This document shows, one piece after another, positions 87 to 13,565 of a stretch of 13,565 bases of DNA. The notes under the pieces are model-generated. The model was not told the DNA's origin. It saw only the letters and a program-made list of their open reading frames with translations, and did not search any database. How positions within the stretch are numbered: the stretch's first letter is position 1; every line of letters begins with the position of its first letter. The stretch comes from Candidatus Bipolaricaulia bacterium (GTDB taxonomy: Bacteria; Bipolaricaulota; Bipolaricaulia; JBHIAT01). The stretch spans positions 1 through 13,565 of the forward strand of contig JBHIAT010000096.1 in the NCBI GenBank assembly GCA_046758705.1. The letters are read 5' to 3'. The position numbers were made by a program, and so were the translations under genes.

Positions 87-1175
87 TTATAAAGGCAAGT
101 CTGTATAGCTGTCAAGAATCTCCGCTGGGCTGACCCAACGTCCCTCATCGACTGATCGATAGCCGGCCAGCGCCAAGGCGATGCTGTTGAGGTTGTCACG
201 GCCGCTGATCTCTGGTTCTGTGTCTTCATCGATGGCGCGCATCAGCTGGGCCATCGTGCCCACAAACGCATCCGGGAACCAACGCTCTGACCAGCGCGGC
301 CGGTGCCAGACGCCGGGCCGGTCTCGGAAGGTAAAGTCGAGCGTGCTGGGCGCGCCCTCCGGATGGTACATCCAGCCGACCGTCCCCCGGGCGATCCCGT
401 CGGGGCCTTCGATTCGGAAGCGGTTGTATTTGTCGTCGTCGGTCCATGAGAATGTGTCACTCCACAGCGCGCAGCGCAGATTGCCCTCGTATTCGAGGAT
501 CGCCAAGGAGATTGATTCACCCACGAACACCTGGTCTGGATAACGGGTCTGGCTGACCACGATGCGGGTCGGTTCGCCAAACCAGTAACGGAAGCAGTCC
601 ATATGGTGAATGTCTTCGTTCATCCACTGGCAGCGATAGCCCCGGGAGTAGGTCTGGGGGATATCCAAGACGCGCAACTCGATCGTCGCCACGATTACCT
701 CACCGAGCAGTCCATGGTTGAGCAGCGTCTTGACAGAGCGTACCGCTTGGTCGTAGCGCATGTTCTGGTTCACACCGAGCTTGACACCGGCACGCTCCGC
801 CGTCTCGACGATCTGGACCGCGTCTTCGTAGGTCCAGGCGAGCGGCTTTTGCGCCAGGATGTGTTTTTCATTGGCAGCAGCAGCCCGGACCACATCGAGC
901 TGGTGTTCGGGAGGAAAGGCGATGTCCACGATCTCGATCTCGGAGTCGGCGCACAGCTCCTCGTAGGTGTCGTAAACTTTGGGGATGTCAAACTGGGCGG
1001 CGAGTTTTTGGGCGTGGGCCGGGGTGTGCGAAGCGATGGCGACCACGTTGAAGCCGGCCTTTTGGTAGGCGATCAGATGGCATTCGCGTACGATGAATCC
1101 CGCGCCGACCACGCCGATGCGGTAGTCGGTGTTGTGGTCCAGGTGAGGCAGATAATCGAGGTCGATGTCAGTCAT
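87..1175 (-). CDS. Gfo/Idh/MocA family NAD(P)-dependent oxidoreductase
   Basis: 362-aa ORF with Rossmann motif RIGVVGAGFIV, AQKP (variant of the family EKP motif), NQNMRY and IHHMD. AAGGGGA RBS lies about 10 nt upstream of the ATG. Confidence 0.9.
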   Translation of the reverse strand: MTDIDLDYLPHLDHNTDYRIGVVGAGFIVRECHLIAYQKAGFNVVAIASHTPAHAQKLAAQFDIPKVYDTYEELCADSEIEIVDIAFPPEHQLDVVRAAAANEKHILAQKPLAWTYEDAVQIVETAERAGVKLGVNQNMRYDQAVRSVKTLLNHGLLGEVIVATIELRVLDIPQTYSRGYRCQWMNEDIHHMDCFRYWFGEPTRIVVSQTRYPDQVFVGESISLAILEYEGNLRCALWSDTFSWTDDDKYNRFRIEGPDGIARGTVGWMYHPEGAPSTLDFTFRDRPGVWHRPRWSERWFPDAFVGTMAQLMRAIDEDTEPEISGRDNLNSIALALAGYRSVDEGRWVSPAEILDSYTDLPL

Positions 1176-1227
1176 GATGGATGTGTCCCCTTTATAGAGG
1201 GATCAAATGAATCGTCCCCGGCTTGTC

Positions 1228-1258
1228 TTGACAAATGAGATCCCCAATGGGATATAGT
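1228..1258 (+). promoter_or_regulatory. Putative sigma70 promoter for the TIM-barrel/iolG-like operon
   Basis: TTGACA (1228-1233) and TATAGT (1253-1258) with an unusually long 19-bp spacer. Imperfect inverted repeat ATCCC-CAAT-GGGAT (1240-1253) sits between the two boxes. Confidence 0.55.
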
Positions 1259-1285
1259 GTATCACGACATAGACAATCGTTGCAA
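1256..1285 (-). promoter_or_regulatory. Putative sigma70 promoter for the leftward Gfo/Idh/MocA gene
   Basis: Minus strand reads TTGCAA (1285-1280), 18 bp, TACACT (1261-1256), preceded by TGn (extended -10). Confidence 0.4.
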
Positions 1286-1306
1286 TTACCAAGGAGGGAG
1301 AAGCCG

Positions 1307-2215
1307 ATGAAGCTGGCGTGCAACACCTTGTCTTACAACCGGTCTTTAAAACCAACCGCCACCGTGATCCCTGCCAGCCCACCAGGCGATCTCGACCTGT
1401 TCGATCTGATCGAGCGGTTCGCCAACGAGTTGAGGGTGGGGGGGATCGAGATCGACGGCCAACATATCGTCGATCGGTCGAGTCAAACCCTAAAACAGAT
1501 CAAGCGCACTTGCATTGACAACGGTCTGACCATCGCCAGTGTCACTGCCTATACCAATTTCGGATACCGGGATCCGACCCAAATCCGCAGCGAGATTGAC
1601 AAGGTCAAGGCCGGGGTCGACTTGGCCGTCAGGCTCGGCACCCCGATCCTGCGGATCTTCGCCGGTCGCCCTGAAGAGAGTCGGGAGGCCCAATGGGGGA
1701 GTATGATTGAAGGGCTAAGTCAGGCCGCCGAGGTCGCGGAGTCGGTCGGAGTGGTGCTGGGGATGGAAAATCATAACGACGACGGGTTCGCTGAATCGGC
1801 TGAAGCCGTGGAGCGGATCTTTTCCGAAGTCGGCTCACCATGGTTGCGATTGAACCTGGACACCGGCAACTATCTGGACGGCCTGCGCTCGATCGAGAAG
1901 ACGATTCCGTATACCGTTCACATTCATCTGAAATTCCTTCAGGTCGACGAGCAAGGGCGAGAGATGGGCATCGATTATGATGCCCCCCCGGGCGAATCGA
2001 TGAAGGTGATCGTCGTGGAGGTCGAGGAGCACGGCGAGGTGATGCGGTACAAGCAGTACATGACCAACCTGACTTGGGTCTTTGATGCGCTGAGGGAGCA
2101 GAGCTATCGCGGGTTTGTGTCGGTCGAGTACGAAGGGCAGGAGGAGGCCGGAGAGACCGCCGTACCCCGGGCGGTCGAGTACGTTCGGAGGTTGATCCAG
2201 GAGCGGTTCCGATGA
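1307..2215 (+). CDS. Sugar phosphate isomerase/epimerase family protein (xylose isomerase-like TIM barrel, IolE/MocC-like fold)
   Basis: Metal-ligand motifs GMENHN, NLDTGN, HIHLK and SVEYEG. Start moved from 1235 to ATG 1307 because AAGGAGGGAG RBS lies at 1291-1300 and the 1235 start falls inside the promoter. Confidence 0.85.
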   Translation: MKLACNTLSYNRSLKPTATVIPASPPGDLDLFDLIERFANELRVGGIEIDGQHIVDRSSQTLKQIKRTCIDNGLTIASVTAYTNFGYRDPTQIRSEIDKVKAGVDLAVRLGTPILRIFAGRPEESREAQWGSMIEGLSQAAEVAESVGVVLGMENHNDDGFAESAEAVERIFSEVGSPWLRLNLDTGNYLDGLRSIEKTIPYTVHIHLKFLQVDEQGREMGIDYDAPPGESMKVIVVEVEEHGEVMRYKQYMTNLTWVFDALREQSYRGFVSVEYEGQEEAGETAVPRAVEYVRRLIQERFR

Positions 2216-3240
2216 ATTCTCAAAGACAGCAACTCAACGTTGGGGTGATCGGGCTGGGAAGGATAGGAGGCATCCACGCCGAATCGCTGGCGAACCGCAT
2301 CCCTCGGGCCCGTCTGGCGGCTGTCGCCGACCTGCGGACCGACCTCGCTGAGCGAGTTGCGGCCCAGTATGGGGTAGAGCGTTGGTACAATGACTACCGC
2401 CCGTTGCTCGACGACCGGCGGATCGAGGCAGTGCTCATTACCACGCCAACGAGCACCCACAAGGAGATGATCGTCGCCGCCGCCCAGGCCGGCAAGCAGA
2501 TCTTCTGCGAGAAGCCGATCGCGCTCACGCTGGAGGAGACCGATGCTGCGCTGGACGCGGTCAAAAGAGCGGGGGTCAAGTTCCAGGTCGGGTTCATGAT
2601 GCGGTTCGATGCCGGCAATATCCGGGCGAAGGAGCAGATCGAGGCCGGGGTCATCGGAACACCGCTGACGTTCAAGACGATCACCCGCGATGCAGGATGC
2701 CCCGATCCCCAGTTCGCCAATCCCAAGCACAGCGGCGGGATCATCATCGACATGGGAATCCACGACTTCGATCGCGGCCGGTGGTTGATGAACAGCGAGG
2801 TCGAGCGCGTCTACGCCGAGGGAGGGTTGCTGGTCTGTCAGGATCTGGAGCCGGTCGGGGATATCGACAACGCGTCGGTGAACCTGCGGTTCGCGAACGG
2901 GGCGCTCGGCAACGTTGAGGTGAGCCGCACCGCGTTCTACGGATACGATCTGCGCGCCGAGGTGCTCGGCTCCAAAGGGGCATTGCTGATCGGAGAGGTG
3001 AAGAAAACCCCGGTCTGGATGCTGACGGAGGCGGGTGTGACCCACGATACCTTGCGGATGTTTGAAGGGTCAGGGACCCTTCGGGACGCTTACACGGAGG
3101 AGATCAAGCACTTCGTCGACTGCGTGTTGGAGGATCGAGAGCCGGCCGTCGGCGGACAGGACGGGCGCGTAGCGATGGAGGTCGCGCTGGCCGCCGCGCG
3201 GTCGTATCAGGAGGGAAGACCGATCGAGCTGAGTTCGTAG
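2212..3240 (+). CDS. iolG: Inositol 2-dehydrogenase-like Gfo/Idh/MocA oxidoreductase
   Basis: GVIGLGRIG, FCEKP, GFMMRFD and DMGIHDFD motifs typical of IolG-type enzymes. ATGA overlap with the upstream gene indicates translational coupling. Exact substrate not provable from sequence. Confidence 0.75.
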   Translation: MNSQRQQLNVGVIGLGRIGGIHAESLANRIPRARLAAVADLRTDLAERVAAQYGVERWYNDYRPLLDDRRIEAVLITTPTSTHKEMIVAAAQAGKQIFCEKPIALTLEETDAALDAVKRAGVKFQVGFMMRFDAGNIRAKEQIEAGVIGTPLTFKTITRDAGCPDPQFANPKHSGGIIIDMGIHDFDRGRWLMNSEVERVYAEGGLLVCQDLEPVGDIDNASVNLRFANGALGNVEVSRTAFYGYDLRAEVLGSKGALLIGEVKKTPVWMLTEAGVTHDTLRMFEGSGTLRDAYTEEIKHFVDCVLEDREPAVGGQDGRVAMEVALAAARSYQEGRPIELSS

Positions 3241-3296
3241 TCGCAGTGCTACCGGCGTGCGGTGAGCGATTCCCTGAGCCAGAAGGCGGGGTCGGT

Positions 3297-4130
3297 CTAG
3301 TCTACCGCCCCAAACGTCATCCCGCGTACCAGGTACTTCTGCGAGAAGAAGGCGAGCACAAGCACCGGGATCATGCCGACCACCGATAGGGCGGACATCA
3401 CCGAAAACAGGAAGCCGGATCCTGACCCGTGCATCCCGGAGACTATCACCGGCAGGGTGGTGGCCGCACGCCGGCTTAGGATGACCGCGAAGATGAGCTC
3501 GTTCCAGGAGAAGATAAACGTGAAGAACGCCGTCACCACCAGCCCGGGCGCGGTGAGCGGCAACACGATACGAAACAGCGCCCTCAATCGGGAAGCGCCG
3601 TCGATCATCGCCGACTCCTCCAGCTCCACCGGGACCTCCATGAAAAAGCCGCGCATCATCCACACGGCGAACGGCAACGTGATCACCAGATGGGCGATGG
3701 CAATCCCGTACCAGGTGTCGATGAATCCCAGGTTCTTGAATAGGATGAAGATGGGGATGATGCTGGCGACGGCGGGCATCATGCGGGTGGACAAAATCCA
3801 GAACGGAAGATGAAAACCGCCGAGTTTGAACCGGGCGAAGCTGTAAGCGGCCAGCGAGCCGGCCACGATCGAGACGGCGGTGGTGACGGTGGCGACCAGC
3901 AAACTGTTCTTGAGCGCTGTACCGCCCCGTGCCTGGAATCCCTCAATGTAACCGGAGAGTGTCGGACGGTCCGGGATAAAGGTCGGCGGGTAGGTGATCA
4001 CCTCGCTATTGGGCTTGAATGAGGACACCAACATCCAGAAGATCGGGAAGAAGAAGACAACGACGATCGCCACAAAGGTGAGGTGCTTGAGCCAGGTGAT
4101 TGGCTTCAATCGCTTCTGTCCTTTGGGCAT
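3297..4130 (-). CDS. Carbohydrate ABC transporter permease (MalG-like), copy 2
   Basis: Hydrophobic helices, EAA loop ELEESAMIDGAS, SWNE motif and C-terminal QKYLVRGMTFGAV. Confidence 0.92.
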   Translation of the reverse strand: MPKGQKRLKPITWLKHLTFVAIVVVFFFPIFWMLVSSFKPNSEVITYPPTFIPDRPTLSGYIEGFQARGGTALKNSLLVATVTTAVSIVAGSLAAYSFARFKLGGFHLPFWILSTRMMPAVASIIPIFILFKNLGFIDTWYGIAIAHLVITLPFAVWMMRGFFMEVPVELEESAMIDGASRLRALFRIVLPLTAPGLVVTAFFTFIFSWNELIFAVILSRRAATTLPVIVSGMHGSGSGFLFSVMSALSVVGMIPVLVLAFFSQKYLVRGMTFGAVD

Positions 4131-4182
4131 TGGATCCCCTCTTGAAGTGCAGTCAGCAATGCCCTGAGCCGGACCCGGAGGG

Positions 4183-5070
4183 TTATTCTATCGCACCGAG
4201 CGTCATGCCGCGTACCAGGTACTTCTGTGAGAAGAAGGCGAGCACGAGCACCGGAATCATGCCGAGCACCGCCAGAGCCGACATCACCGACCATAGAACG
4301 CCATGTGCCGCGTGCATCCCGGAGATCAGCACCGGCAGGGTGGTGGCCGCGCGCCGGCTTAGGATGAGCGCGAAGATGAACTCGTTCCAGGAGAAGATAA
4401 ACGTGAAGAACGCCGTCACCGCTAGCCCGGACGCAGTGATCGGCAACACGACTCGAAACAGTGCTTTCAATCGGGAAGCGCCGTCGATCATCGCCGACTC
4501 CTCCAGCTCCACCGGGACCTCCATGAAGAAGCCGCGCATCATCCACACGGCGAACGGCAATGTGATCACCAAATGGGTGATGGAGATCCCGTACCAGGTG
4601 TCGATGAATCCCAGGTTCTTGAACAGGATGAAGATCGGAATGATGCTGGCGACGGCGGGCATCATGCGAGTGGACAGGATCCAGAACGGCAGGTGGAAGC
4701 CGCCGAGTTTAAATCGGGCGAAGCTGTAAGCAGCCAGGGAGCCGGTCACGATCGAGACGATGGTGGCGGCCGTGGAGACGATCAAACTGTTCCTGAGCGC
4801 GATGGTGCCGCGTGCCTCAAGCGCCTCAATGTAACCGGAGATTGTTGGACGGCTGGTGACGAAGATCGGTGGGGAGTTGATCACCTCGTTATTAGGTTTG
4901 AACGAGGTCGACAACATCCAGAAGATCGGGAAGAAGAAGACAACGACAATTACCAGGAAGGTGAGATACTTGAGCAGGGTGATCGGCTTCAACCATTTCC
5001 GTTTCCTCCGACCTCGGGCTTGAACTTGGGTTTGGGTTTGGGCTTTGACTTTGACTTGAGTTTGGGCCAT
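4183..5070 (-). CDS. Carbohydrate ABC transporter permease (MalG-like), copy 1
   Basis: EAA loop ELEESAMIDGAS, SWNEF and QKYLVRGMTLGAI. About 82% identical to the adjacent permease by hand alignment. Confidence 0.92.
   Translation of the reverse strand: MAQTQVKVKAQTQTQVQARGRRKRKWLKPITLLKYLTFLVIVVVFFFPIFWMLSTSFKPNNEVINSPPIFVTSRPTISGYIEALEARGTIALRNSLIVSTAATIVSIVTGSLAAYSFARFKLGGFHLPFWILSTRMMPAVASIIPIFILFKNLGFIDTWYGISITHLVITLPFAVWMMRGFFMEVPVELEESAMIDGASRLKALFRVVLPITASGLAVTAFFTFIFSWNEFIFALILSRRAATTLPVLISGMHAAHGVLWSVMSALAVLGMIPVLVLAFFSQKYLVRGMTLGAIE
5020..5067. repeat. Degenerate hexamer tandem repeat (8 units) encoding the low-complexity N-terminus AQTQVKVKAQTQTQVQ
   Basis: ttgaac ttgggt ttgggt ttgggc tttgac tttgac ttgagt ttgggc read directly on the + strand. 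Confidence 0.6.
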
Positions 5071-5076
5071 CAGATC

Positions 5077-5967
5077 TCACTCCTCGCGGTGGAGCACCTT
5101 GGCGATGCTCATCGTGATGATCACGGTCACGACCAGCAGCAGAAAGGCCATCGCTGCGGCATAACCGACCCTGAAGTACTTGAAGCCGGCGAAGTAAGCG
5201 TAGAATGACGCCGTCTCTGTCGCAGTCCCAGGTCCACCTTGGGTCATGATGAAGATCTTATCGAACATGCGGAACGCATCCAAGGTCCGAATCAGAAGCA
5301 CAATGGCGATCAGTCGCTTCAGCATCGGCAGGATAATATGGATCAGCCGTTGCCATGCAGAGGCGCCGTCGACTGCCGCTGCTTCAAACAGCTCGTTGGG
5401 CAGGGAGACGAGCCCGGCCAACATCACCAGCACGACGAACGGTGTCCACTGCCAGACATCGGCGATGATGATTGACGGGAGGGCGGTGGTCACGTTTGCG
5501 GTCCACGCATAGGGACCCAGACCGATAAACCCCAACAGGTAATTGATCGGACCGGCCTCCACGTTATACAACAGCCGCCACATATAGCCGACGATGACCG
5601 GTGCGACCATCATCGGAATCAGGATGATGGGGATGAACCGCTTGAAGACCGGGTGCTCCATCACCTCTCCGAAGATGAGCAGTGCAATCCCCAGCCCGAG
5701 CAGGAATTCGAGCGAGATCGATCCGCCCAACAGGATGCCGGTCTGCTTGAGCGATGCCCAGAATCGCGGGTCCTTCAGCACCTCGGCGTAGTTCGCTCCG
5801 CCGACGAACGTCTGGAGGTGAGGTCGGGGCAGATAATAGTCGAAGAAACTGATCCGGACCGCATAGATCAACGGGAAGATCGTGATCGCCAGCAGGATAA
5901 GCACAGCAGGCAGGGCGGCCAGGAGGGCGAACCGCCGGCGGTTGAAGTATGCAAGTGCCTTATCCAT
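5077..5967 (-). CDS. Carbohydrate ABC transporter permease (MalF-like)
   Basis: FVGGANY, ADVWQWTPF, EAA loop ELFEAAAVDGAS and TQGGPGTATET. Start placed at ATG 5967 (MDKALAYF) because the longer ORF start at 6048 runs through an intergenic hairpin. The start is uncertain. Confidence 0.88.
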   Translation of the reverse strand: MDKALAYFNRRRFALLAALPAVLILLAITIFPLIYAVRISFFDYYLPRPHLQTFVGGANYAEVLKDPRFWASLKQTGILLGGSISLEFLLGLGIALLIFGEVMEHPVFKRFIPIILIPMMVAPVIVGYMWRLLYNVEAGPINYLLGFIGLGPYAWTANVTTALPSIIIADVWQWTPFVVLVMLAGLVSLPNELFEAAAVDGASAWQRLIHIILPMLKRLIAIVLLIRTLDAFRMFDKIFIMTQGGPGTATETASFYAYFAGFKYFRVGYAAAMAFLLLVVTVIITMSIAKVLHREE

Positions 5968-6003
5968 AACCTGAGATGAATCGAACTTGAACTTAAGGAT
6001 AGA

Positions 6004-6045
6004 AGAGAGAAGGCCGGGCCAAGTGACGGACCCCGCCTCCTCTCT
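6004..6045 (-). terminator. Intercistronic stem-loop after the binding-protein gene (mRNA stabiliser or partial terminator)
   Basis: On the mRNA, AGAGAGGAGGC pairs with GCCUUCUCUCU (11 bp, one G-U) with further internal GC pairing. It begins about 15 nt after the SBP stop codon. Confidence 0.6.
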
Positions 6046-6059
6046 CAACTTCGACTCGA

Positions 6060-7484
6060 CTACAAGCTAAACGCTTCCCGGTACTTCTGCGTCTGTCCCC
6101 GTCTGCCGAGGCGGTTGGTGATCCGGTCCCACTCCTGAGCGACCCGATCCAACGCCTGCTTCGGAGTCAGCCGTCCGGTGAGCGCCTCCTGGACGAACCG
6201 ATCCAGGGTGTCGTAGTAGTCGAACGACCCGGGGATGCGGAGTTCGGGGTACAGGGCGGCGATGTTGTCGTTGTAGGCCTGGAGGTAATCCGGAGTCACG
6301 ATCACATTGCTGACCCCCGACTCAAAGTGGGAGATCCGGTAGAAGTCCTGACCGGTCCCCGGATCGAGCACGAGCGACAGGCTCACCTCGGGCCCGAGCA
6401 TGTACCACATGACGGTGTAGGCCGCCTCCTTGTTCCGGCTGTCCGCGGACAGCCCCATGACCCAACCGCCACCGGTTGACGAGCGGCGGTAGACCTGGCC
6501 GTCGTGAAGCGCACCCGGAATTGTCCCGAAGCCCATGTCACCACCTATACTGCGAAGTTCGGCGACCCGCTTGCCCTCATCGGGCCAGTGGACCTGCATT
6601 GCCAGATTGCCCTTCATGAACGCGTTGAACAGCTCGTCCCATTCCCAGCCAAGCACGCCCGGCGGTGCCAGATCGATCGCCTGCTTGTAGTTCTCCAGCG
6701 CTTGCACGCCGCAGGGCTGATTGACCAGTGGCTGCATCGTATTCGGGTCGAACAGGTGGGGGTCCGCGAAGTTCTTGTAAGGGCCGCAGAAGCCGAAGTA
6801 ACGGATTAGGAACCAGTAGAACGACCGTCCTCGCTTTGCCTGATCGGCATAGCCCCAGAGGTCGATGTCGCCGTCGCCGTCAGTATCACGCGTGAAGAAT
6901 TCGGCAATGTCGAGCACCTGATCCCAGGTCTCCGGTGCCCCGAGCTCGTAACCGTAGCGCTGACGGAACGCGGCCTTCTCGCGCGGATCCTCGAACAGGT
7001 CTTTGCGGTAGTAGAGCAGGAAGACGTCCCCGTCCAGCGTGATCGAGTACCGCTTGCCAGCGAAGGTGTTCTCCCACACCTGGAAGCCCGGATGGATATC
7101 TTCCCAGCCCGGATCCAAGCGCTCTATGAAGGGATCCAACGGCGTGAGGAAATCGACGAAGTCGCCGTACCAGGCAGGGTTGAACATGAGCAGATCGAAG
7201 GCGCCCGTCCCGGTCGCCAGCTCGATGAGCTCCTTGTCGAACATGTCCGAGACGGTGATACCGACGACTTCGATCTCGATGTCGAACAGCTCTTTGATCC
7301 GTTCGGCGCGATCCCGCCACGGGATCTCGAAGTGGCCGGCGTGCAACGCGATGGTGACCTTCGTCCCATCGAATTGGGGCAGCTCTGCCCTCTGGGCATA
7401 AGACAGAGACGAGAGTCCCCCGACGAGCAACAGCGTCAGGACCATCGCTCCCACCATCATCCGTGCTGCACCTTTGTGCATCAC
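6060..7484 (-). CDS. Sugar ABC transporter extracellular solute-binding protein (CUT1 family)
   Basis: Sec signal peptide (hydrophobic core ending LSYA-Q, no lipobox Cys), LLYYRKDLF and APETWDQ motifs. First gene of the permease cluster. Start is GTG 7484 or ATG 7481. Confidence 0.9.
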   Translation of the reverse strand: MMHKGAARMMVGAMVLTLLLVGGLSSLSYAQRAELPQFDGTKVTIALHAGHFEIPWRDRAERIKELFDIEIEVVGITVSDMFDKELIELATGTGAFDLLMFNPAWYGDFVDFLTPLDPFIERLDPGWEDIHPGFQVWENTFAGKRYSITLDGDVFLLYYRKDLFEDPREKAAFRQRYGYELGAPETWDQVLDIAEFFTRDTDGDGDIDLWGYADQAKRGRSFYWFLIRYFGFCGPYKNFADPHLFDPNTMQPLVNQPCGVQALENYKQAIDLAPPGVLGWEWDELFNAFMKGNLAMQVHWPDEGKRVAELRSIGGDMGFGTIPGALHDGQVYRRSSTGGGWVMGLSADSRNKEAAYTVMWYMLGPEVSLSLVLDPGTGQDFYRISHFESGVSNVIVTPDYLQAYNDNIAALYPELRIPGSFDYYDTLDRFVQEALTGRLTPKQALDRVAQEWDRITNRLGRRGQTQKYREAFSL

Positions 7485-7519
7485 TGTGAATCACCCACCC
7501 TCTTCTGAGTTTTGAGCCC

Positions 7520-7548
7520 ATCATATCATGCTTAATTTCACGTGTCAA
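7520..7548 (-). promoter_or_regulatory. Sigma70 promoter of the ABC transporter operon
   Basis: Minus strand reads TTGACA (7548-7543), 17 bp, TATGAT (7525-7520), with TGn extended -10. Confidence 0.8.
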
Positions 7549-7574
7549 TAGTCACTTAATCTCCCTCAGAACGT

Positions 7575-7602
7575 TTGACCGGAGGCTGATTGCTGCTATA
7601 AT
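7575..7602 (+). promoter_or_regulatory. Sigma70 promoter of the small Virulence_fact-like gene
   Basis: TTGACC (7575-7580), 16 bp, TATAAT (7597-7602), with extended -10 TGcTATAAT. Confidence 0.75.
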
Positions 7603-7660
7603 GAGACCCACTGGATATCGGGTCGGATGAGACGGTTTGGTGAAGGAGGTGGAGGATCGG

Positions 7661-7954
7661 ATGGCAGAGTATCAGGTTCTTTACTGGAAGGAGATTCCGG
7701 CCCAAATCAAGGTCGAAGACGGCAAGCAGGAGGTCAGGCGACCCCTGCCCGAACGGTTCCAGGCGACCATTGACGCGATCGCGATGCGCCAGGGGGAGGT
7801 CGGAACGGACGCCTATCTTCAGAGTTGGCGTTGGGGGTCGAAGCAGGTCCGGGAGGGGACACCGGAGGCGGTAGCCGAGGCGATTGTCGCCGAACTCGAC
7901 GCTGCCTATCCCCCGAAGCGGCTCGGGGAAATGATCGGCGAAACGGAAGTGTGA
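7661..7954 (+). CDS. Small 'virulence factor' domain protein (Pfam Virulence_fact/PF13769-like), function unknown
   Basis: YWKEIPAQI...LPERFQATIDAIAM...DAYLQSWRW pattern recognised from memory of the family. GGAGG RBS 5 nt before ATG 7661. Confidence 0.75.
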   Translation: MAEYQVLYWKEIPAQIKVEDGKQEVRRPLPERFQATIDAIAMRQGEVGTDAYLQSWRWGSKQVREGTPEAVAEAIVAELDAAYPPKRLGEMIGETEV

Positions 7955-7963
7955 GCGGAAGTT

Positions 7964-8989
7964 TTAAGGCCTAAGAAGGATTTTGATCGCCTGTCCCTCT
8001 CTGAGCAGATCGATGGCCTGATCGAACTCGTTCAGACCGAATTCGTGCGTGATCAGCTCCTCAACCCGCAGCGCACCGCTATCCAGGAGCCGAATCGCTG
8101 TCGGGAAGGTATAGTTGGTGATCCAGCTCCCGATCACGGTGAGACACCGTTGCGTGATATCGTTCTGGGTGATCTCGGCGTGGGCCTCTGTGTTCTGACC
8201 GAACAGCATGACACGACCGCCCGTCCGGGCGACTTGGAGGGTCTGAGGGAACAGGCTGCCGACAGCATCGACGACGATATCGGCCCCCCGGCCAGTCTCC
8301 TTTTGGACGGCCGCTTCCAGAGACTCTTCCAAAGGATTGACGACGCGGTGGGCGCCACTGCGCTTCGCGTACTCCCGACGAAACTCAGACGGCTCCGAGA
8401 CGATGATCGGTCGGACCCCCTCAGCACCGAGCACCTGAGTGAACAGCTGGCCGATCGGCCCGGCGCCCAAGATGGCAACGCTCTCCCCGGCTTGTGGTCT
8501 CAGCTGGTTCCTGGCGTTGACCACACACGCCAGCGGCTCGGCGAACGCGGCCCGCTCGGGCAGCATGTGATCAGGGACCTGATGCAAGTTGCTCTCCGGA
8601 GCGATGTTGTACTCGGCGAATCCCCCGTCGATGAAGATCCCCAGCGCGGTCAGGTTCTGACACATGTTGGTGAGTCCGTCCTTGCAGAAGTTGCAGTAAC
8701 CACACCTGACGGTGGGATCGACGACGACGCGATCTCCGACCGAGACACTTCGGACACCGTTACCGACTTCGACGACCTCTCCGGTGTACTCATGGCCGAG
8801 GATGACGCCTTCGCTGGCCTCTTGACCGGGTGGAACGCTCAGGATATGGACATCGGTGCCACAGACACCGACCGCCTGGACCCTGAGCAGGACGTCATCA
8901 GGGTTCTTGACTTCAGGAATGGGTCGCTCGAGCACGGCCGCACGGCCGTTCCCCTGAAACTCTACCGCCCTCATCACACCGGCTGGCAT
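7964..8989 (-). CDS. Zinc-dependent MDR-family dehydrogenase (sorbitol/iditol/threonine dehydrogenase-like)
   Basis: GVCGTDVH, GHE, structural Zn site CGYCNFC-x7-C, EPLAC and GAGPIG. AAGGAGG RBS. Confidence 0.9.
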   Translation of the reverse strand: MPAGVMRAVEFQGNGRAAVLERPIPEVKNPDDVLLRVQAVGVCGTDVHILSVPPGQEASEGVILGHEYTGEVVEVGNGVRSVSVGDRVVVDPTVRCGYCNFCKDGLTNMCQNLTALGIFIDGGFAEYNIAPESNLHQVPDHMLPERAAFAEPLACVVNARNQLRPQAGESVAILGAGPIGQLFTQVLGAEGVRPIIVSEPSEFRREYAKRSGAHRVVNPLEESLEAAVQKETGRGADIVVDAVGSLFPQTLQVARTGGRVMLFGQNTEAHAEITQNDITQRCLTVIGSWITNYTFPTAIRLLDSGALRVEELITHEFGLNEFDQAIDLLREGQAIKILLRP

Positions 8990-9008
8990 GATCGTACCCT
9001 CCTTAACC

Positions 9009-10061
9009 TTAACTCTCGTTCCCGTCGTACCAACCGTACTTGCGAACGACCTCAGCCATCATCTGGACGTTTTCGACGGGCGTGTCTCGACCGAGCTCGC
9101 AGCCGGAGCCGAGGATGAACCCCCCGCCTGGAGCGCACCCCTCGACCAACTTCTTGCTGATCTGCTCGATATCCTCGGGTGTGCCCCGGACCATCAACGT
9201 GGTGTCGATGTTCCCTTTGATGCAGATCCGATCCCCCAGTTGTTGTTTCGCTGCCGCCATATCGATGGGCGCATCGAGATCGAACAGGTCGGCTCCGGTC
9301 TCCAACATCTCCTCCCAGCGATCCGACGTCCGGCCGCAGATGTGGAGAATCACCTTGGCGCCCTTGTTGTGTGCCAGCTGGATGATCTCCCGTTCGTAAG
9401 GCCGGGCCCACTTCTTGTAGTCGTCGACGGAGATCAGGTCTCCGGTGGCGAGTGAGTCCCCAATGAACAGGATGTCCGCACCGGCGTCGATCATCGCCTC
9501 GGCCCAGATGGACACCGCCTTGCCACAGAACTCGAGGGTTTTGTCGATCAACTCTGGGTTCATGATCGAATCGACGAACCACTCCTGGAGCCCCCTTAAG
9601 TTCCCGGCCACCTGCCACGGGGCACTGGTCGCGCTCCAGACCGGGACTTCGTCCTTGAGCTGCCGTTTGAGGATGCGGATCGCGCCCAACATCGTCGGCA
9701 TGAAGCCATCCTTCTCGGGGTCGGGCAGCTTCAGCTTGTTGACGTCGTCGACCGAGTGGACGATGTGGCCCTGGACCTTGGGGAAATCGTCCTCCGGTTC
9801 GTCGACAGGACAGCCGATCGCGCCGGGCACGACCGGGATGCCGATGTTGACGTTGACGCCGTCGAGCTTGCAGATCTCATAGGCAGCCAGTTGGGACTCG
9901 GCGTGGACCTGGGGATCGTTGCTGTGCTCGATCCATTTTCTGTCGATGAGCCGGGTTGCCCAGCCGCCCTGCCACGGGGAGGCAGCGACCCGATCGGGCT
10001 CCTGGAGGTCGATGGTCGCCATCGTACGCTCCATCGGAGTCATGGACTCCTCTCGCGTCAT
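9009..10061 (-). CDS. MtaA/CmuA-type methyltransferase (uroporphyrinogen decarboxylase family)
   Basis: N-terminal MTPMER...EPDRV, Zn-binding HxC (VILHICG) plus distal Cys (FILGSGCEL), CIKGNIDT and TPVENV. Located in a corrinoid operon. Confidence 0.85.
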   Translation of the reverse strand: MTREESMTPMERTMATIDLQEPDRVAASPWQGGWATRLIDRKWIEHSNDPQVHAESQLAAYEICKLDGVNVNIGIPVVPGAIGCPVDEPEDDFPKVQGHIVHSVDDVNKLKLPDPEKDGFMPTMLGAIRILKRQLKDEVPVWSATSAPWQVAGNLRGLQEWFVDSIMNPELIDKTLEFCGKAVSIWAEAMIDAGADILFIGDSLATGDLISVDDYKKWARPYEREIIQLAHNKGAKVILHICGRTSDRWEEMLETGADLFDLDAPIDMAAAKQQLGDRICIKGNIDTTLMVRGTPEDIEQISKKLVEGCAPGGGFILGSGCELGRDTPVENVQMMAEVVRKYGWYDGNES

Positions 10062-10067
10062 GGTCCC

Positions 10068-10835
10068 TCACCCCTTCCTTATGTGGATTTTATTACGACC
10101 CTTAATATGACCGTCTACACTGGCCCACCACCTGTTCGTGGCCTTGATCGTGTTGAACGTGTAGACATGAAAGCCATCCACGTGTTCGTAGACCGCCTCC
10201 ATCAGCGGACGCGGGTCGTAATGGCTGATCATACTCACCACATCGCGCTTGGCCATTCTCTTCAGGAAGTTAACCGATCCGGTCACGCCGCAACGCATCG
10301 CGAATTGCGTCAGCCTCGCAATGTTGATCGGGGCGGCGACTCCGCACTGGATGGGCAACGTGATGCCTTTATCGCGAATCCGCTTCGTCCAGTCGACAAT
10401 AGCTTGAGGGTTGAAGCACATCTGCGTGATCGCGTAGGTCGCCCCGAGGTGTTGTTTTTCGAGCAAGATCTCGTCACCGAAGGTTTCGTACGGATAGGAA
10501 GGATGACCTTCCGGATAGCTGGCCACGCCGATTTCATCGCAATGGCGAAAGTACGGGATCAACTGAGCTGAACGGTCGAACAGTCCGTGCGGCTTTTGAT
10601 CTCCTGCGATTAAAAGAACTTTCTTCGTGAAGATCTCAGTGAGGGCGCGTAGATGGTCCTCACTTTCCACCAGTGCGGCGGATAGATGCGGCGTATGTCG
10701 TGATCCGAGTTTACGATAGGTGTCAATGGTCGGCTGGAGGTCTTGGGCCGTGCACGTGATGGAAAGTTCCCAGACCTCAGGGATGATATCGAGCCTGAGC
10801 TTCTTACTCGGAAAGATTTCAAAGATGACCTTCAT
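10068..10835 (-). CDS. metF: Methylenetetrahydrofolate reductase (short, divergent)
   Basis: FEIFP (catalytic Glu), PHLSA, IAGD, YPEGHP, AITQMCF and GFHVYTFN motifs of the MTHFR fold. ATGA overlap with the upstream gene at 10832-10835. Confidence 0.85.
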   Translation of the reverse strand: MKVIFEIFPSKKLRLDIIPEVWELSITCTAQDLQPTIDTYRKLGSRHTPHLSAALVESEDHLRALTEIFTKKVLLIAGDQKPHGLFDRSAQLIPYFRHCDEIGVASYPEGHPSYPYETFGDEILLEKQHLGATYAITQMCFNPQAIVDWTKRIRDKGITLPIQCGVAAPINIARLTQFAMRCGVTGSVNFLKRMAKRDVVSMISHYDPRPLMEAVYEHVDGFHVYTFNTIKATNRWWASVDGHIKGRNKIHIRKG

Positions 10836-12718
10836 AAATCCTCATCCTCCAACAGATTTTTTTCGGTGAAGAACATGCTGACCATGAACACATCCCCGAA
10901 GTCGCTTCTCGCGGAGAGCTCCAGGTAATCGACCCGTTCGACGATCTCCTGAACCTCATCCCACTTATCGCGGTTGACGAGACAGATCTTCGCTCCCTGG
11001 CCGGCGGCGTTGCCAACAGCATTGATCTTCTCCAAGGGAAAGTTCGGCAACATCCCGGTCCGCACCACGTTCTCCGCCCGCAGGAAACTGCCAAATGCCC
11101 CGGCCAGGAACACCTGATCGATCTGGTCAGGTGTCACCCCCCACTCCTTCATCACGATCTCGACACCGGACCGGATCGCCCCCTTGGCGACCTGGAGTTC
11201 ACGCACATCCTTCTGGCTGAGGTAAACCGGGTGCTCCCCGTCGGTCAAGATGAACCGCTTCATCTTGATTCGTTCTCCCGGCCGTCCTTCTCTATCGACC
11301 TCGACCTCGACCAACCGCTTGCCGATCGGGAGGTCGGGCCGCGGTTGAAAGTGCCCTTGCTTGGCCAGCATCTCCACCTTCCACAGCTGACCGACGATGT
11401 CGACCAGCCCTGTCCCACAGATGCCGATCGGTTTGGCATCGTCGATCGTTTCGAGATGGACGGCATCGGGGTCGATGACCACGTGGGAGATCGCTCCAGG
11501 ATGGGCCGTCATCCCCTGCTCGATCTTCGCCCCCTCGAGCGCCGGCCCGGCCGGAGACGAGCAACTGACGATCCGCTCCCGGTTGCCGAGGGTGATCTCG
11601 CAGTTCGTCCCGATGTCAACCAACAGCATCAGACCCTCAGCGTGGTGGAGGTCGGTGGCCAGCATCCCGGCGGTGATATCTCCACCCACATACCCTGAGA
11701 CGTTCGGCAGGATCAACACCCGACCCGCCGGGTTCATTTTGACCCCGAGTTCGACACCGGTGAACTCGTTGCGATCTCGGGTTGCGGGGATATAAGGGCT
11801 GTGGTCGATGTAGGAGGGATCGGCCCCGATGAACAGATGGGTCATCGTCGGATTCCCGGCGAACGTTGCCTGGTAGATGTTCCCTGGGGTGATCCCTGTC
11901 TCATCGCACAGCTTCTGGATGATCGAGTTCACCGCCGAAAGCACCTTGCCCCGTAGCTTCCTCAAGCCCTTGTCTCCGTGGTCGTGGACGTGCTTGATCC
12001 GGGCGATGACATCGGCTCCGTAGCTGCGCTGCGGGTTCATCCCTGAACGGACTCCGAGCTCTTCGCCGGTGTTGAGGTTCAACAGATAACCGGCGATGGT
12101 CGTCGTTCCGATGTCGAACGCGACGCCGTAGCTGTCGGCCGAGGTGTCCTCCGGCTCCACGTCCAACACCCGGCCTCCCGCGACGGTGACCGTCGCCTTG
12201 AAGTCGTTGCGGTGCAGAACCTCGGTGACCTTCTGAAGGGCGGGGAGTGAGAACTCAAGCTCTTCCCCCAACCCCAACTCCTCCTGGATCCGCAGCGTAT
12301 CGGGGCGCTGGTCCTCGATGTGCGGCTTGGGGAACTCGCGGTAGAACTTCTTGACGCCGCTGTCGATCGCCACGCCCTGGACACCCTTGCTCATCAACTG
12401 CTTGGCGACGGCGCTCTGATCGACGCTCGGCGCCTCGATGACCATTCCGTCGGTGACCTGGTGCATGCAGGAGAGCCGAACCCCGCTCTCCAGCTCGCGC
12501 TCGTTAAGCGTCTTGTGATCCGCCACGGTCGGATCCGGGATCCCGTCGAGGATCCGCACCCGACACTTGCGGCACGTCCCCACCCCGCCACACTCGCTGA
12601 TAACCGGGTAGTCCTCCCGCTGCAGCAGGCTCAGGATCGTCTCATCCGACCCGGCTCGCACTCGCCGTTCATCGGGGCGGATCAGGATCTCGGTCTGCAT
12701 TTGCGATCGTGTTCCCAT
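10832..12718 (-). CDS. ASKHA-domain ATP-dependent reductive activator of corrinoid proteins (RACo/RamA-like) with N-terminal [2Fe-2S] domain
   Basis: CGGVGTCRKC...RLSC ferredoxin motif, FDIGTTT, NPQRSYGADVIARI, VDIGTNCE, AGPALEG, GICGTG, LAGAFG and GNAAGQGA. Confidence 0.93.
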   Translation of the reverse strand: MGTRSQMQTEILIRPDERRVRAGSDETILSLLQREDYPVISECGGVGTCRKCRVRILDGIPDPTVADHKTLNERELESGVRLSCMHQVTDGMVIEAPSVDQSAVAKQLMSKGVQGVAIDSGVKKFYREFPKPHIEDQRPDTLRIQEELGLGEELEFSLPALQKVTEVLHRNDFKATVTVAGGRVLDVEPEDTSADSYGVAFDIGTTTIAGYLLNLNTGEELGVRSGMNPQRSYGADVIARIKHVHDHGDKGLRKLRGKVLSAVNSIIQKLCDETGITPGNIYQATFAGNPTMTHLFIGADPSYIDHSPYIPATRDRNEFTGVELGVKMNPAGRVLILPNVSGYVGGDITAGMLATDLHHAEGLMLLVDIGTNCEITLGNRERIVSCSSPAGPALEGAKIEQGMTAHPGAISHVVIDPDAVHLETIDDAKPIGICGTGLVDIVGQLWKVEMLAKQGHFQPRPDLPIGKRLVEVEVDREGRPGERIKMKRFILTDGEHPVYLSQKDVRELQVAKGAIRSGVEIVMKEWGVTPDQIDQVFLAGAFGSFLRAENVVRTGMLPNFPLEKINAVGNAAGQGAKICLVNRDKWDEVQEIVERVDYLELSARSDFGDVFMVSMFFTEKNLLEDEDL

Positions 12719-12729
12719 AGGCGGTTCTC

Positions 12730-13401
12730 TTACCCATCCCAGCGATCTCGGGGTAGCTCTGCAGTCAGCTGCTTGGCCTGGTCGGTCGCGGTGGCGGCGT
12801 CCGGTCCGTAAGCATCCGCGCTCATCTCATCGGCGAACTCTTGAGATATCGGTGCGCCCCCGACCATCACCTTCACCTTGTCGCGAACTCCGACCTCCTC
12901 GAACAGCTTGATGTTCTCAGGCATGTGCATCATCGTCGTGGTCAACAGCGCCGACATGCCGACGATATGCGGCTTATACTTCTGGATCGCTTCGACGAAC
13001 TCCTCGCCGGTCGTTTCGGTGCCCAGGTTGTAGACTTCGAAGCCGGCGCCCTCCCACATCATCGACACCAGACTCTGGCCGATGTCGTGCAGGTCGCCCT
13101 CGACCGTCCCGATGATACACACCCCTCTAGATTCGGCCCCGGTTTCTACCAAGATAGGCCTTAGAATCTCCATCGCCCCCTTCATCGCGTAGGCGGCGAT
13201 CAGCATCTCGGGGACAAAGATCTCCTGGCGGGAGAACTTATCGCCGATGATATCCATCGCATAGATCAGCCCATCATCCAGGATCTGCTCAACTTCATAA
13301 CCTTGCTCCAGCGCCTGGTTGGTCAGCTCCACCGTTCGCTCCCGATCGCCCGCCTGCGTGCTCTGGTTGATCTGCTCAAAGATGTCGTTCTCGTCGGCCA
13401 T
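12730..13401 (-). CDS. Corrinoid (cobalamin-binding) methyl-carrier protein (MtaC/MttC-like)
   Basis: Cap domain (FVPEMLIAAYAMK), DxHxxG (GDLHDIG), MSALLTTT and VMVGGAP. Start placed at ATG 13401, 6 nt after GGGAGG RBS (13413-13408). Confidence 0.93.
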   Translation of the reverse strand: MADENDIFEQINQSTQAGDRERTVELTNQALEQGYEVEQILDDGLIYAMDIIGDKFSRQEIFVPEMLIAAYAMKGAMEILRPILVETGAESRGVCIIGTVEGDLHDIGQSLVSMMWEGAGFEVYNLGTETTGEEFVEAIQKYKPHIVGMSALLTTTMMHMPENIKLFEEVGVRDKVKVMVGGAPISQEFADEMSADAYGPDAATATDQAKQLTAELPRDRWDG

Positions 13402-13403
13402 CA

Positions 13404-13565
13404 TCATCCTCCCGATGACGTACTTCGGATCCGTGCCGGTGTCCGCTTGCCTTCCTCCTGCCATACTTGCTTCGTGTACTTCACATAACCCAGGCAGCCC
13501 GGGTCATCTCCGAGGAGCGCCTCGATCGCCTTGATGGTGTCGATCGTATCCCGATCGGTGGGGTC
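13404..13565 (-). CDS. C-terminal fragment of a methyltetrahydrofolate:corrinoid methyltransferase (AcsE-like, pterin-binding), truncated by the window edge
   Basis: Hand translation gives DPTDRDTIDTIKAIEALLGDDPGCLGYVKYTKQVWQEEGKRTPARIRSTSSGG*. This resembles the AcsE-type C-terminus (DP.D......A.EALLG.D..C..Y). The stop codon abuts the corrinoid-protein start. Confidence 0.72.
   Translation of the reverse strand, partial: DPTDRDTIDTIKAIEALLGDDPGCLGYVKYTKQVWQEEGKRTPARIRSTSSGG

Follow-up and report, generated by a model that had tools for sequence, protein, structure and literature searches.

The 13,565-nucleotide contig JBHIAT010000096.1 of a Candidatus Bipolaricaulia bacterium (hereafter the window, which takes up all of contig C96 in G000, a genome bin of 3.7 Mb in 319 contigs) carries on its minus strand an operon whose genes fit a complete four-component corrinoid methyl-transfer system feeding tetrahydrofolate (THF), together with a methylenetetrahydrofolate reductase (MTHFR). 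The gene order is the end of an AcsE-like methyl-THF:corrinoid methyltransferase (MT2), a corrinoid protein, a RACo-type activase, a short MTHFR-like protein, an MtaA/Mlp-like methyltransferase of the URO-D fold and a zinc-dependent dehydrogenase (Table 1). We see about an even chance that the URO-D protein is the methyl donor:corrinoid protein methyltransferase (MT1) of a demethylase that acts on a methylated cyclitol, polyol or sugar taken up by the cell; as donor we propose an O-methyl cyclitol or polyol as the most likely, and otherwise an O- or S-methyl sugar. A methylated carbohydrate-type donor is the best guess because genes of the URO-D superfamily recur in LacI-, SorC- or GntR-regulated sugar, inositol and polyol operons of this genome, its class and other phyla, and because a LacI-family regulator apparently heads the operon and a polyol-type dehydrogenase closes it. 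A preliminary description of this DNA had suggested a B12 module acting on an O-methyl-inositol or O-methyl sugar; the idea stays plausible and is better founded than before, but O-methyl-inositol becomes one of several possible donors.

Genes were called from a listing of open reading frames (ORFs) and from Pfam and NCBIfam scans of the window, which bear out the gene content given earlier. Among the corrinoid set, the corrinoid protein, RACo, URO-D protein and MTHFR are present as described, whereas the AcsE-like MT2 reaches into the window with its last 53 codons only. The genes are tightly packed: ATGA overlaps occur between MT2 and the corrinoid protein, where the MT2 stop codon overlaps the first ATG, and between RACo and the MTHFR, and the remaining gaps measure 6-19 nucleotides, with 19 between the URO-D and dehydrogenase genes. 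The ORF of the corrinoid protein is open back to 13464, and translation probably begins at one of the three successive ATGs at 13407-13399; the protein holds the D-x-H-x-x-G motif as DLHDIG, and its best NCBIfam match is MtgC-like (211 bits, under the cut-off of 370). The RACo protein scores 432 bits with the AcsV model (cut-off 800) and is the sole match in a whole-genome search with PF14574; scanning metagenomes with it brought up no relative. The nearest solved relative of the short MTHFR is 7xg9 (S6MTHFR, E 1.4e-23), compared with which its N-terminus lacks about 23 residues, and the one other PF02219 match of the genome is weak (C20, 33 bits). S6MTHFR is described, in the available part of its publication, as oxidising CH3-THF, hardly using NADH and coupling with demethylases (PMC11868366). 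By analogy, we propose that the short MTHFR would oxidise methyl-THF to methylene-THF.

The identity of the gene cut by the window end was established indirectly. The 53-residue peptide has no match in Pfam, and no relative was found by tblastn of the genome or by a word-index search against longer proteins. A PF00809 search of the genome returned a full-length protein on contig C29 and an N-terminal fragment with which contig C210 begins. This fragment (N-terminal 114 residues, 41 bits against a cut-off of 25.5) reads off the contig end, and its best homologues are pterin-binding proteins of 262-290 residues with 64-70% identity. The peptide is identified as the end of MT2 because the C-termini of these homologues align to it by blastp, with residues 234-278 of 279 in P0125 (53% identity, E 1.5e-11) and 234-271 of 271 in P0121 (58% identity); P0125 passes the cut-off of NF005719, methyl-THF:corrinoid/iron-sulfur protein methyltransferase (275 bits vs 259). 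Moreover, tblastn of P0121, P0122 and P0125 on the genome matches only C210:327-1 (residues 1-115) and C96:13565-13407 (residue 234 to the end), so that a single AcsE-like MT2 is represented in the assembly by two orphans, one N-terminal and one C-terminal. These lie at contig ends in compatible orientations, and we infer that they are pieces of one gene at which the two contigs join. Contigs of two other runs extend beyond the window end; one of them, of 3,723 letters, overlaps the window at 13222-13565 and continues for another 3,379 letters. The C29 protein was rejected as the MT2 of the operon; it is full-length (279 residues, 301 bits), adjoins an AI-2E transporter and is probably a dihydropteroate synthase.

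On C210, a LacI-family regulator precedes MT2 on the same strand, with 7 nucleotides from its stop to the MT2 start, and through the C210-C96 join it appears to head the operon. It combines PF00356 with a sugar-binding-type domain; in NCBIfam it resembles ribose repressors most, though it stays under their cut-off (266 bits vs 382). LacI proteins with 48-53% identity to it adjoin URO-D-like genes and sugar-type ATP-binding cassette (ABC) transporter sets in two relatives from the class. The preliminary description had considered that a known MT1 (MttB, MtaB or MtvB) just upstream of the window might account for the operon; none was found there, the cut gene being MT2 and the next one, by way of the join, encoding LacI. 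Two TTAACGTTAA palindromes stand beside a TATAAT box at 1409-1431 of L253 (contig C210), within the 5' end of the annotated LacI ORF. They probably mark the true LacI promoter and operator, in which case LacI would begin some 30 codons downstream of the annotated start. In an operator search the TTAACGTTAA repeat was present only before the LacI gene on C210, and the sole match in the window, with one mismatch, lies at 9003 and overlaps the ribosome-binding site of the dehydrogenase gene. A generic LacI-type operator pattern gave many matches and was uninformative.

The URO-D protein is the candidate MT1 of this operon. Its nearest solved relative is MtaA (4ay7, E 6e-32), CdmB (9rui) reaching only 2e-5, and it scores below the cut-offs of the MtaA/CmuA families (TIGR01463, 194.4 vs 235.4 bits; PRK06252, 195.3 vs 244 bits). 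In the alignment with 4ay7, H240, C242 and C321 fall on its LHICG and GC residues. These His-x-Cys...Cys residues, which we take to be the zinc ligands, show no variation across 19 homologues and are conserved in 81 of 81 sequences, the last Cys being part of the search pattern; a role as decarboxylase was rejected on the conservation of this motif. No MttB, MtaB or other MT1 family was detected in the window by Pfam or NCBIfam, and since the AcsE-like gene already fills the MT2 role, the URO-D protein is the only candidate for MT1 in the operon. Close homologues are scarce, with identities of 71%, 51% and then at most 36% among 5.8 billion proteins. In the tree, the URO-D protein of the window and two close relatives form a clade of their own (support 100), whose placement with respect to the sugar-linked clades is unsettled.

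The same genome has 12 URO-D matches in total. A locus on contig C12 (L264:7782-19145, minus strand) encodes on one strand Peripla_BP_4, permease, ATPase, a URO-D-like protein, NYN, a zinc-dependent dehydrogenase, Gfo, IolD and an IolE-like protein. The ABC set is of the CUT2 type, IolD passes its cut-off (787 vs 715), Gfo is levoglucosan-dehydrogenase-like (336 bits, below cut-off), and the URO-D-like protein, of 536 residues, carries an N-terminal extension of about 145. On the plus strand of the same contig (L264:4709-5428), 8.5 kb from the URO-D-like gene, lies a gene for a 239-residue protein with a weak match (26.4 bits) to PF02965, the reactivation domain of B12-dependent methionine synthase. 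Other paralogues are found 2 kb from a CUT1 ABC set (C43), flanked by MFS transporter and PfkB kinase genes (C52), and adjoining a corrinoid protein (C124 and C213); those on C85, C117 and C3 have no sugar-type or corrinoid-protein context.

Homologues of the C12 type occur in 42 of 184 genomes of the class. Among the 24 best-per-genome loci, 23 were enlarged (the one left out being a 1.9 kb contig), and their genes were labelled by tblastn within 5 kb of the URO-D-like gene, with Pfam applied to five loci. At least two ABC components are present in 16 of the 23, a LacI, SorC or GntR regulator in six, an FGGY kinase in six, and an IolG, IolM, dehydrogenase or Gfo enzyme in four; a corrinoid protein, RACo or MT2 gene was found in none and MttB in one. 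One relative (G028) has a tight single-strand operon (L301:4699-12140) encoding a Peripla_BP_4 binding protein, permease, ATPase, a URO-D-like protein of 384 residues, Gfo, dehydrogenase and a creatininase-like protein. Gfo passes the IolG cut-off (466 vs 355) and the dehydrogenase that of IolM (542 vs 450); judged by its genes, the locus is a Thermotoga-type inositol operon with an inserted methyltransferase-like gene. The URO-D-like gene of this operon lies at L301:8130-9284. The window IolG is 43% identical to the operon's IolG, and the window dehydrogenase 33% identical to its IolM. Another relative (L304) has the order SorC, CUT1 ABC, URO-D-like, FGGY kinase and dehydrogenase. In further class relatives (L314-L316 and L318), MtaA-like and MT1-like URO-D genes alternate, up to four in a row, beside an ABC permease and ATPase. 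The six-frame matches of several relatives to the URO-D-like query contain single in-frame TGA, TAA or TAG codons, which probably reflect read-through into upstream DNA from the N-terminal extension of the query.

We also examined 80 genome and 80 metagenome loci around URO-D homologues of 28-37% identity, plus one at 50%. The collection scan used a 6-sequence alignment, the 19-sequence one having no sufficiently conserved stretch; neighbours were labelled with the proteins of the window as tblastn probes, sugar-type genes within 3 kb and corrinoid protein or RACo genes within 5 kb. The genome loci divide into 23 with sugar-type neighbours only, 14 with corrinoid protein or RACo only, two with both and 41 with neither, and the metagenome loci into 7, 18, one and 54, respectively. 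A neighbourhood search of this kind had been proposed in the preliminary description for a joint occurrence with corrinoid and sugar genes; sugar-type neighbours were recovered at 25 of 80 genome and 8 of 80 metagenome loci, but most loci have neighbours of neither kind. The MtaA-like URO-D homologues embedded among sugar genes belong to Chloroflexota, Spirochaetota and Bathyarchaeia, and on the tree of URO-D homologues the sugar label needs at least six changes. Operons confirmed by Pfam read LacI-URO-D-SBP-permease-permease, where SBP is a solute-binding protein, ROK...URO-D-SBP-permease-permease-?-PfkB, GntR-TRAP-URO-D'-SDR-URO-D-ADH-Gfo, where ADH is a dehydrogenase, and URO-D-TIM-Gfo. In a Bathyarchaeia contig, also by Pfam, PIG-L-URO-D has genes for a corrinoid protein, Gfo, MalK-type ATPases and a permease as neighbours. 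PIG-L-family deacetylase genes stand directly beside the sugar-embedded MtaA-like URO-D genes at L039, L041, L056 and L028 (Chloroflexota and the Bathyarchaeia contig), and L056 carries in addition a GlcNAc 2-epimerase; these neighbours may point to amino-sugar substrates. RACo (1-6 matches) and numerous free-standing corrinoid proteins are encoded elsewhere in five of five tested genomes with a sugar-embedded URO-D gene; as a control, the RACo search was positive in one of 14 well-known genomes.

Table 1. Features of the window (positions in nucleotides)
Feature	Position	Strand	Family evidence and remarks
AcsE-like methyl-THF:corrinoid methyltransferase (MT2), last 53 codons	13404-13565	-	Contig end cuts gene
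Corrinoid (B12-binding) protein, methyl carrier	12730-13407	-	PF02607+PF02310
RACo-type ATP-dependent reductive activase, N-terminal 2Fe-2S domain	10832-12718	-	PF14574/PF17651/PF17650/PF00111/Fer2
Short MTHFR-like protein, 255 residues	10068-10835	-	PF02219, 59.5 bits (cut-off 24); start overlaps RACo stop
MtaA/Mlp-like zinc methyltransferase, URO-D fold	9009-10061	-	PF01208, 246 bits
Zinc-dependent medium-chain dehydrogenase (polyol/threonine-dehydrogenase-like)	7964-8989	-	PF08240+PF00107; last gene of operon
Small PF13769 ('Virulence_fact') protein, 97 residues	7661-7954	+	PF13769, 91.6 bits; convergent with dehydrogenase gene
Two divergent sigma-70-like promoter sites	7520-7602		11/12 positions matched by each
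CUT1-type solute-binding protein with signal peptide	6060-7484	-	PF01547/PF13416 (SBP_bac_1)
ABC permease, MalF/GlcT-like	5077-6048	-	PF00528 (BPD_transp_1); NCBIfam below cut-off
Two tandem ABC permease paralogues, MalG/GlcU-like	4183-5070, 3297-4130	-	PF00528; NCBIfam below cut-offs
Inositol 2-dehydrogenase (IolG)	2212-3240	+	Passes TIGR04380 equivalog cut-off, 374.1 vs 355 bits
Xylose-isomerase-like TIM barrel (isomerase, epimerase or dehydratase fold)	1235-2215	+	PF01261, 116 bits; overlaps iolG by 4 nucleotides
Second Gfo/Idh/MocA oxidoreductase	87-1175	-	PF01408, PF02894; divergent from TIM-barrel/iolG pair

The remaining genes of the window provide the sugar side. The CUT1 importer, IolG and a second Gfo/Idh/MocA enzyme are confirmed, while the TIM-barrel protein, taken earlier for an IolE/MocC-fold enzyme, corresponds to IolE at the level of the fold only. 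No ABC ATPase gene was found on the contig by Pfam or NCBIfam. The preliminary description was silent on the opposite-strand PF13769 gene and on a promoter of the ABC operon's own. The PF13769 gene has a strong Shine-Dalgarno sequence and sits between the dehydrogenase gene and the ABC promoter. Of the two sigma-70-like sites (mean of 0.3 in shuffled sequences), the one on the minus strand, 7548-7520, fits the ABC operon and the one on the plus strand, 7575-7602, fits the PF13769 gene. Above cut-off, PF13769 is confined to one of the 184 class genomes, the source genome itself, which hints that part of the region may be of foreign origin; among these genomes there are no further copies to supply gene context.

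Taken as a demethylase, the system would work as follows. A methylated donor would enter through a sugar-type ABC system, possibly the neighbouring importer, and the URO-D protein would, as MT1, move its methyl group onto the Co(I) corrinoid protein. MT2, made up of the window end and the C210 start, would hand the methyl group from there to THF, the short MTHFR would convert methyl-THF to methylene-THF, and RACo would re-reduce oxidised cobalt with ATP. After demethylation, the carbon skeleton would be oxidised by the nearby dehydrogenase, IolG, Gfo and TIM-barrel enzymes. A dehydrogenase oxidation next to the methoxy carbon could provide an enolate-like leaving group, nearer to that of aryl ethers, the known targets of such systems; this step is our own suggestion.

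Several observations weigh against this reading. About 118 MT2 codons between the C210 and C96 pieces are absent from the assembly. The sugar genes of the window are transcription units separate from the corrinoid operon: the opposite-strand PF13769 gene and the promoter of its own split the ABC operon from the dehydrogenase gene, and iolG and the TIM-barrel gene run towards the ABC operon from the other strand. The operator search revealed no site common to these units, the ABC promoter region having no TTAACGTTAA site. The dehydrogenase is below the cut-offs of Tdh (235 bits) and IolM (211 vs 450), the TIM-barrel protein misses those of IolE (21.8 vs 290 bits) and IolO (21.4 vs 300), and the nearest solved relatives of the solute-binding protein bind disaccharides (trehalose/maltose-binding 1eu8, E 7e-20, and MalE3). 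On the chemical side, His-Cys-Cys zinc sites typically go with thiol methyl chemistry and not with ether cleavage, and aliphatic alkoxides leave poorly. In the neighbourhood test, loci with neither kind of neighbour prevail (41/80 and 54/80), and sugar-type matches keep an even density out to 7.5 kb (0.87-0.98 per 10 kb; 0.35 beyond), unlike corrinoid protein and RACo matches, which are concentrated within 2.5 kb of the URO-D gene; as a distance control, this favours a link to sugar genes only mildly. The closest relative with context (L123, 50% identity) has a corrinoid protein as neighbour, on a 2.3 kb contig without sugar genes; there the URO-D gene is convergent to that of a corrinoid protein 50% identical to the one in the window.

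The distribution of the core genes belongs to the same account. When the 184 class genomes were searched with the MT2 fragment, 53 matched, and 20 loci were enlarged. MT2 and a corrinoid protein are adjacent in 15 of the 20, and RACo lies within the locus in 11. An MttB-family gene adjoins MT2 in eight and is present anywhere in the locus in 12, and an MtaA-like URO-D, short MTHFR or dehydrogenase gene is found in none. The corrinoid protein of the window is 50-58% identical to those of the MT2-corrinoid protein-RACo clusters of class relatives, two of which have the order MT2, corrinoid protein, RACo, (FolD), MetV, MetF, (Fhs), one of them with a glycine-betaine-type binding protein in front. 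The genome's only RACo and only AcsE-like MT2 are in the window, against seven MttB matches genome-wide; two corrinoid proteins exist besides that of the window. MT2, corrinoid protein and RACo thus form a generic, class-wide module with its sole copy here, to which LacI, the short MTHFR, the MtaA-like URO-D protein and the zinc-dependent dehydrogenase are, by this comparison, lineage-specific additions. Since the genome combines one core with seven MttB and 12 URO-D matches, the core probably also serves MttB-type and other MT1s encoded elsewhere; and because the module is generic and the only one in the genome, its place beside sugar genes could be incidental.

The seven MttB-family (PF06253) matches lie on C180, C254, C132, C239 and C156, the family being absent from the window and from the C210 start. 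C180 (6,325 bp) holds three tandem MttB-family genes and a thiamine pyrophosphate enzyme at a G+C content of 0.498, compared with 0.57-0.60 in the other contigs examined, and may be of foreign origin or have been binned in error. The contig starts C254/C132 and C239/C156 are two near-duplicate pairs that hold N- and C-terminal MttB parts; the assembly breaks inside repeated methyltransferase genes, and likewise at the window end.

The main rival starts from the single core of this genome. It supposes a shared one-carbon (C1) core, acting for the MT1s encoded elsewhere, next to a methyl-sulfur methyltransferase to which the sugar neighbours are unrelated: the URO-D protein would demethylate a small methyl-sulfur or methyl-selenium compound, such as methanethiol, dimethyl sulfide, methylmercaptopropionate or 2-(methylthio)ethanol, and the dehydrogenase would act on an alcohol or aldehyde. 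We consider it unlikely, although the singular RACo and MT2 and the best MTHFR match of a genome rich in MttB and URO-D genes are all located here, the core is syntenic with MttB in class relatives, the H-x-C...C residues align with MtaA and the sugar genes are separate transcription units. Methyl-sulfur and methyl-selenide roles have, in addition, been proposed for MtaA-like proteins in the available part of Kountz and Balskus (PMC10418091). What argues for the methylated carbohydrate-type donor instead is the LacI-family regulator apparently at the front of the operon, together with the repeated occurrence of URO-D-superfamily genes inside operons for sugars, inositol and polyols in this class and in other phyla; Pfam and NCBIfam also detect no sulfur-metabolism gene in the window, and its single Mlp makes no type 1 mlp cluster by the definition available from PMC10418091.

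Sulfur chemistry and sugar context could both be accommodated by salvage of an S-methyl sugar such as 5-methylthioribose, the URO-D protein moving the S-methyl group to the corrinoid protein in a reversal of the thiolate chemistry of MtaA and the remaining thio-sugar being metabolised in later steps. The resemblance of the zinc site to that of MtaA, the ribose repressors as best, below-cut-off matches of LacI and the sugar-type neighbours agree with it, but MtnK, MtnA and other methylthioribose genes were not found in the window by Pfam or NCBIfam, IolG here and IolG, IolM and IolD at related loci point to cyclitols, and the proposal is pure inference; we judge it improbable. More improbable still is a biosynthetic direction, in which the MTHFR would make methyl-THF, MT2 would load the corrinoid protein and the URO-D protein would methylate a thiol or hydroxyl of a sugar-like acceptor. 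MtaA does transfer methyl from cobalt to its acceptor, and every step is reversible in principle. The catabolic surroundings of importers and dehydrogenases speak against it, as do the coupling of the core to FolD, MetVF, Fhs and MttB demethylases in class relatives and the nearest solved relative of the MTHFR, an oxidising enzyme without NADH use in the available part of its description (PMC11868366).

Several known systems resemble the operon in part. The aryl methyl ether O-demethylases of anaerobes (Acetobacterium dehalogenans Odm and Vdm, those of Desulfitobacterium hafniense, and Moorella MtvABC) have four components. A URO-D-fold MT1, a small corrinoid protein, a methyl-THF-forming MT2 and an ATP-dependent activase are common to them, to the operon as we read it and to the chloromethane system CdmBCA in the available part of its description (PMC13222342). 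Unlike in these systems, the candidate MT1 of the window is on the MtaA-like branch, the proposed donor is non-aromatic, and the operon has a LacI regulator (given the join), an MTHFR and a polyol-type dehydrogenase, with sugar and inositol genes as neighbours. With the MttB-superfamily quaternary-amine systems (MtgB/MtgC/MtgA) it shares an orthologous MT2-corrinoid protein-RACo core, in the same gene order in class relatives; it differs in having no MttB, in the LacI gene that precedes MT2 on C210, and in the URO-D, short MTHFR and dehydrogenase genes that all 20 class loci lack. Type 1 mlp clusters have been defined by Mlp2 and Mlp3 with a corrinoid protein and an activase and, in the available part of the text, no THF methylase (Kountz and Balskus 2023, PMC10418091). 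An MtaA-like protein, a corrinoid protein and a RACE/RACo activase are likewise present here, but the window combines a single Mlp with an AcsE-like MT2 and an MTHFR. Neither 'sugar' nor 'carbohydrate' appears in the main text of PMC10418091.

The Thermotoga-type inositol route comprises IolG, IolM, IolN and IolO. The window (IolG), C12 (IolD and an IolE-like protein) and a class relative (IolG and IolM) share enzymes with this or the IolG/IolE/IolD route, but differ from both in the URO-D-superfamily methyltransferase-like gene inserted in the operons. Rhizopine is demethylated in an oxygen-dependent manner by MocDEF. In Erwinia, pinitol is reportedly used by iol genes, according to the available part of the source without demethylation. 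Cytochromes P450 have been described as the 6-O-methyl-D-galactose demethylase (PMC6292453) and, in fungi, implicated in the use of D-pinitol (PMC9788770), both according to the available portions of these papers. The P450s and MocDEF would share with the proposed system the task of removing an O-methyl group so that a sugar or cyclitol enters central catabolism, but they release formaldehyde, whereas here the methyl group would stay on THF without O2. Full-text literature searches revealed no corrinoid system for methylated sugar or cyclitol donors, and the demethylases found described for such compounds, in the portions of the literature accessible to these searches, were oxygen-using ones only. 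The kind of system is thus known; its sugar context and the substrate class that it implies would be new.

A wider view, to which we give somewhat less than an even chance, is that the URO-D-superfamily methyltransferases of sugar, inositol and polyol operons are O2-independent demethylases of non-aromatic methyl ethers that act through a shared MT2-corrinoid protein-RACo core. It would cover the MtaA-like type of the window and the MT1-like type of class relatives, with donors such as pinitol or methylated polyols and sugars; the window is the sole place found where a methyltransferase, the core, a LacI regulator (again by way of the join) and inositol-type genes occur together. Plants, algae and marine dissolved organic matter commonly contain methylated sugars and cyclitols, and the methyl ether blocks the ordinary catabolism of these compounds. 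If the reading is true, a corrinoid route explains how such compounds can be used anaerobically, aliphatic methyl ethers become a new and chemically demanding substrate class for corrinoid methyltransferases, and carbohydrate breakdown would be linked to C1 metabolism.

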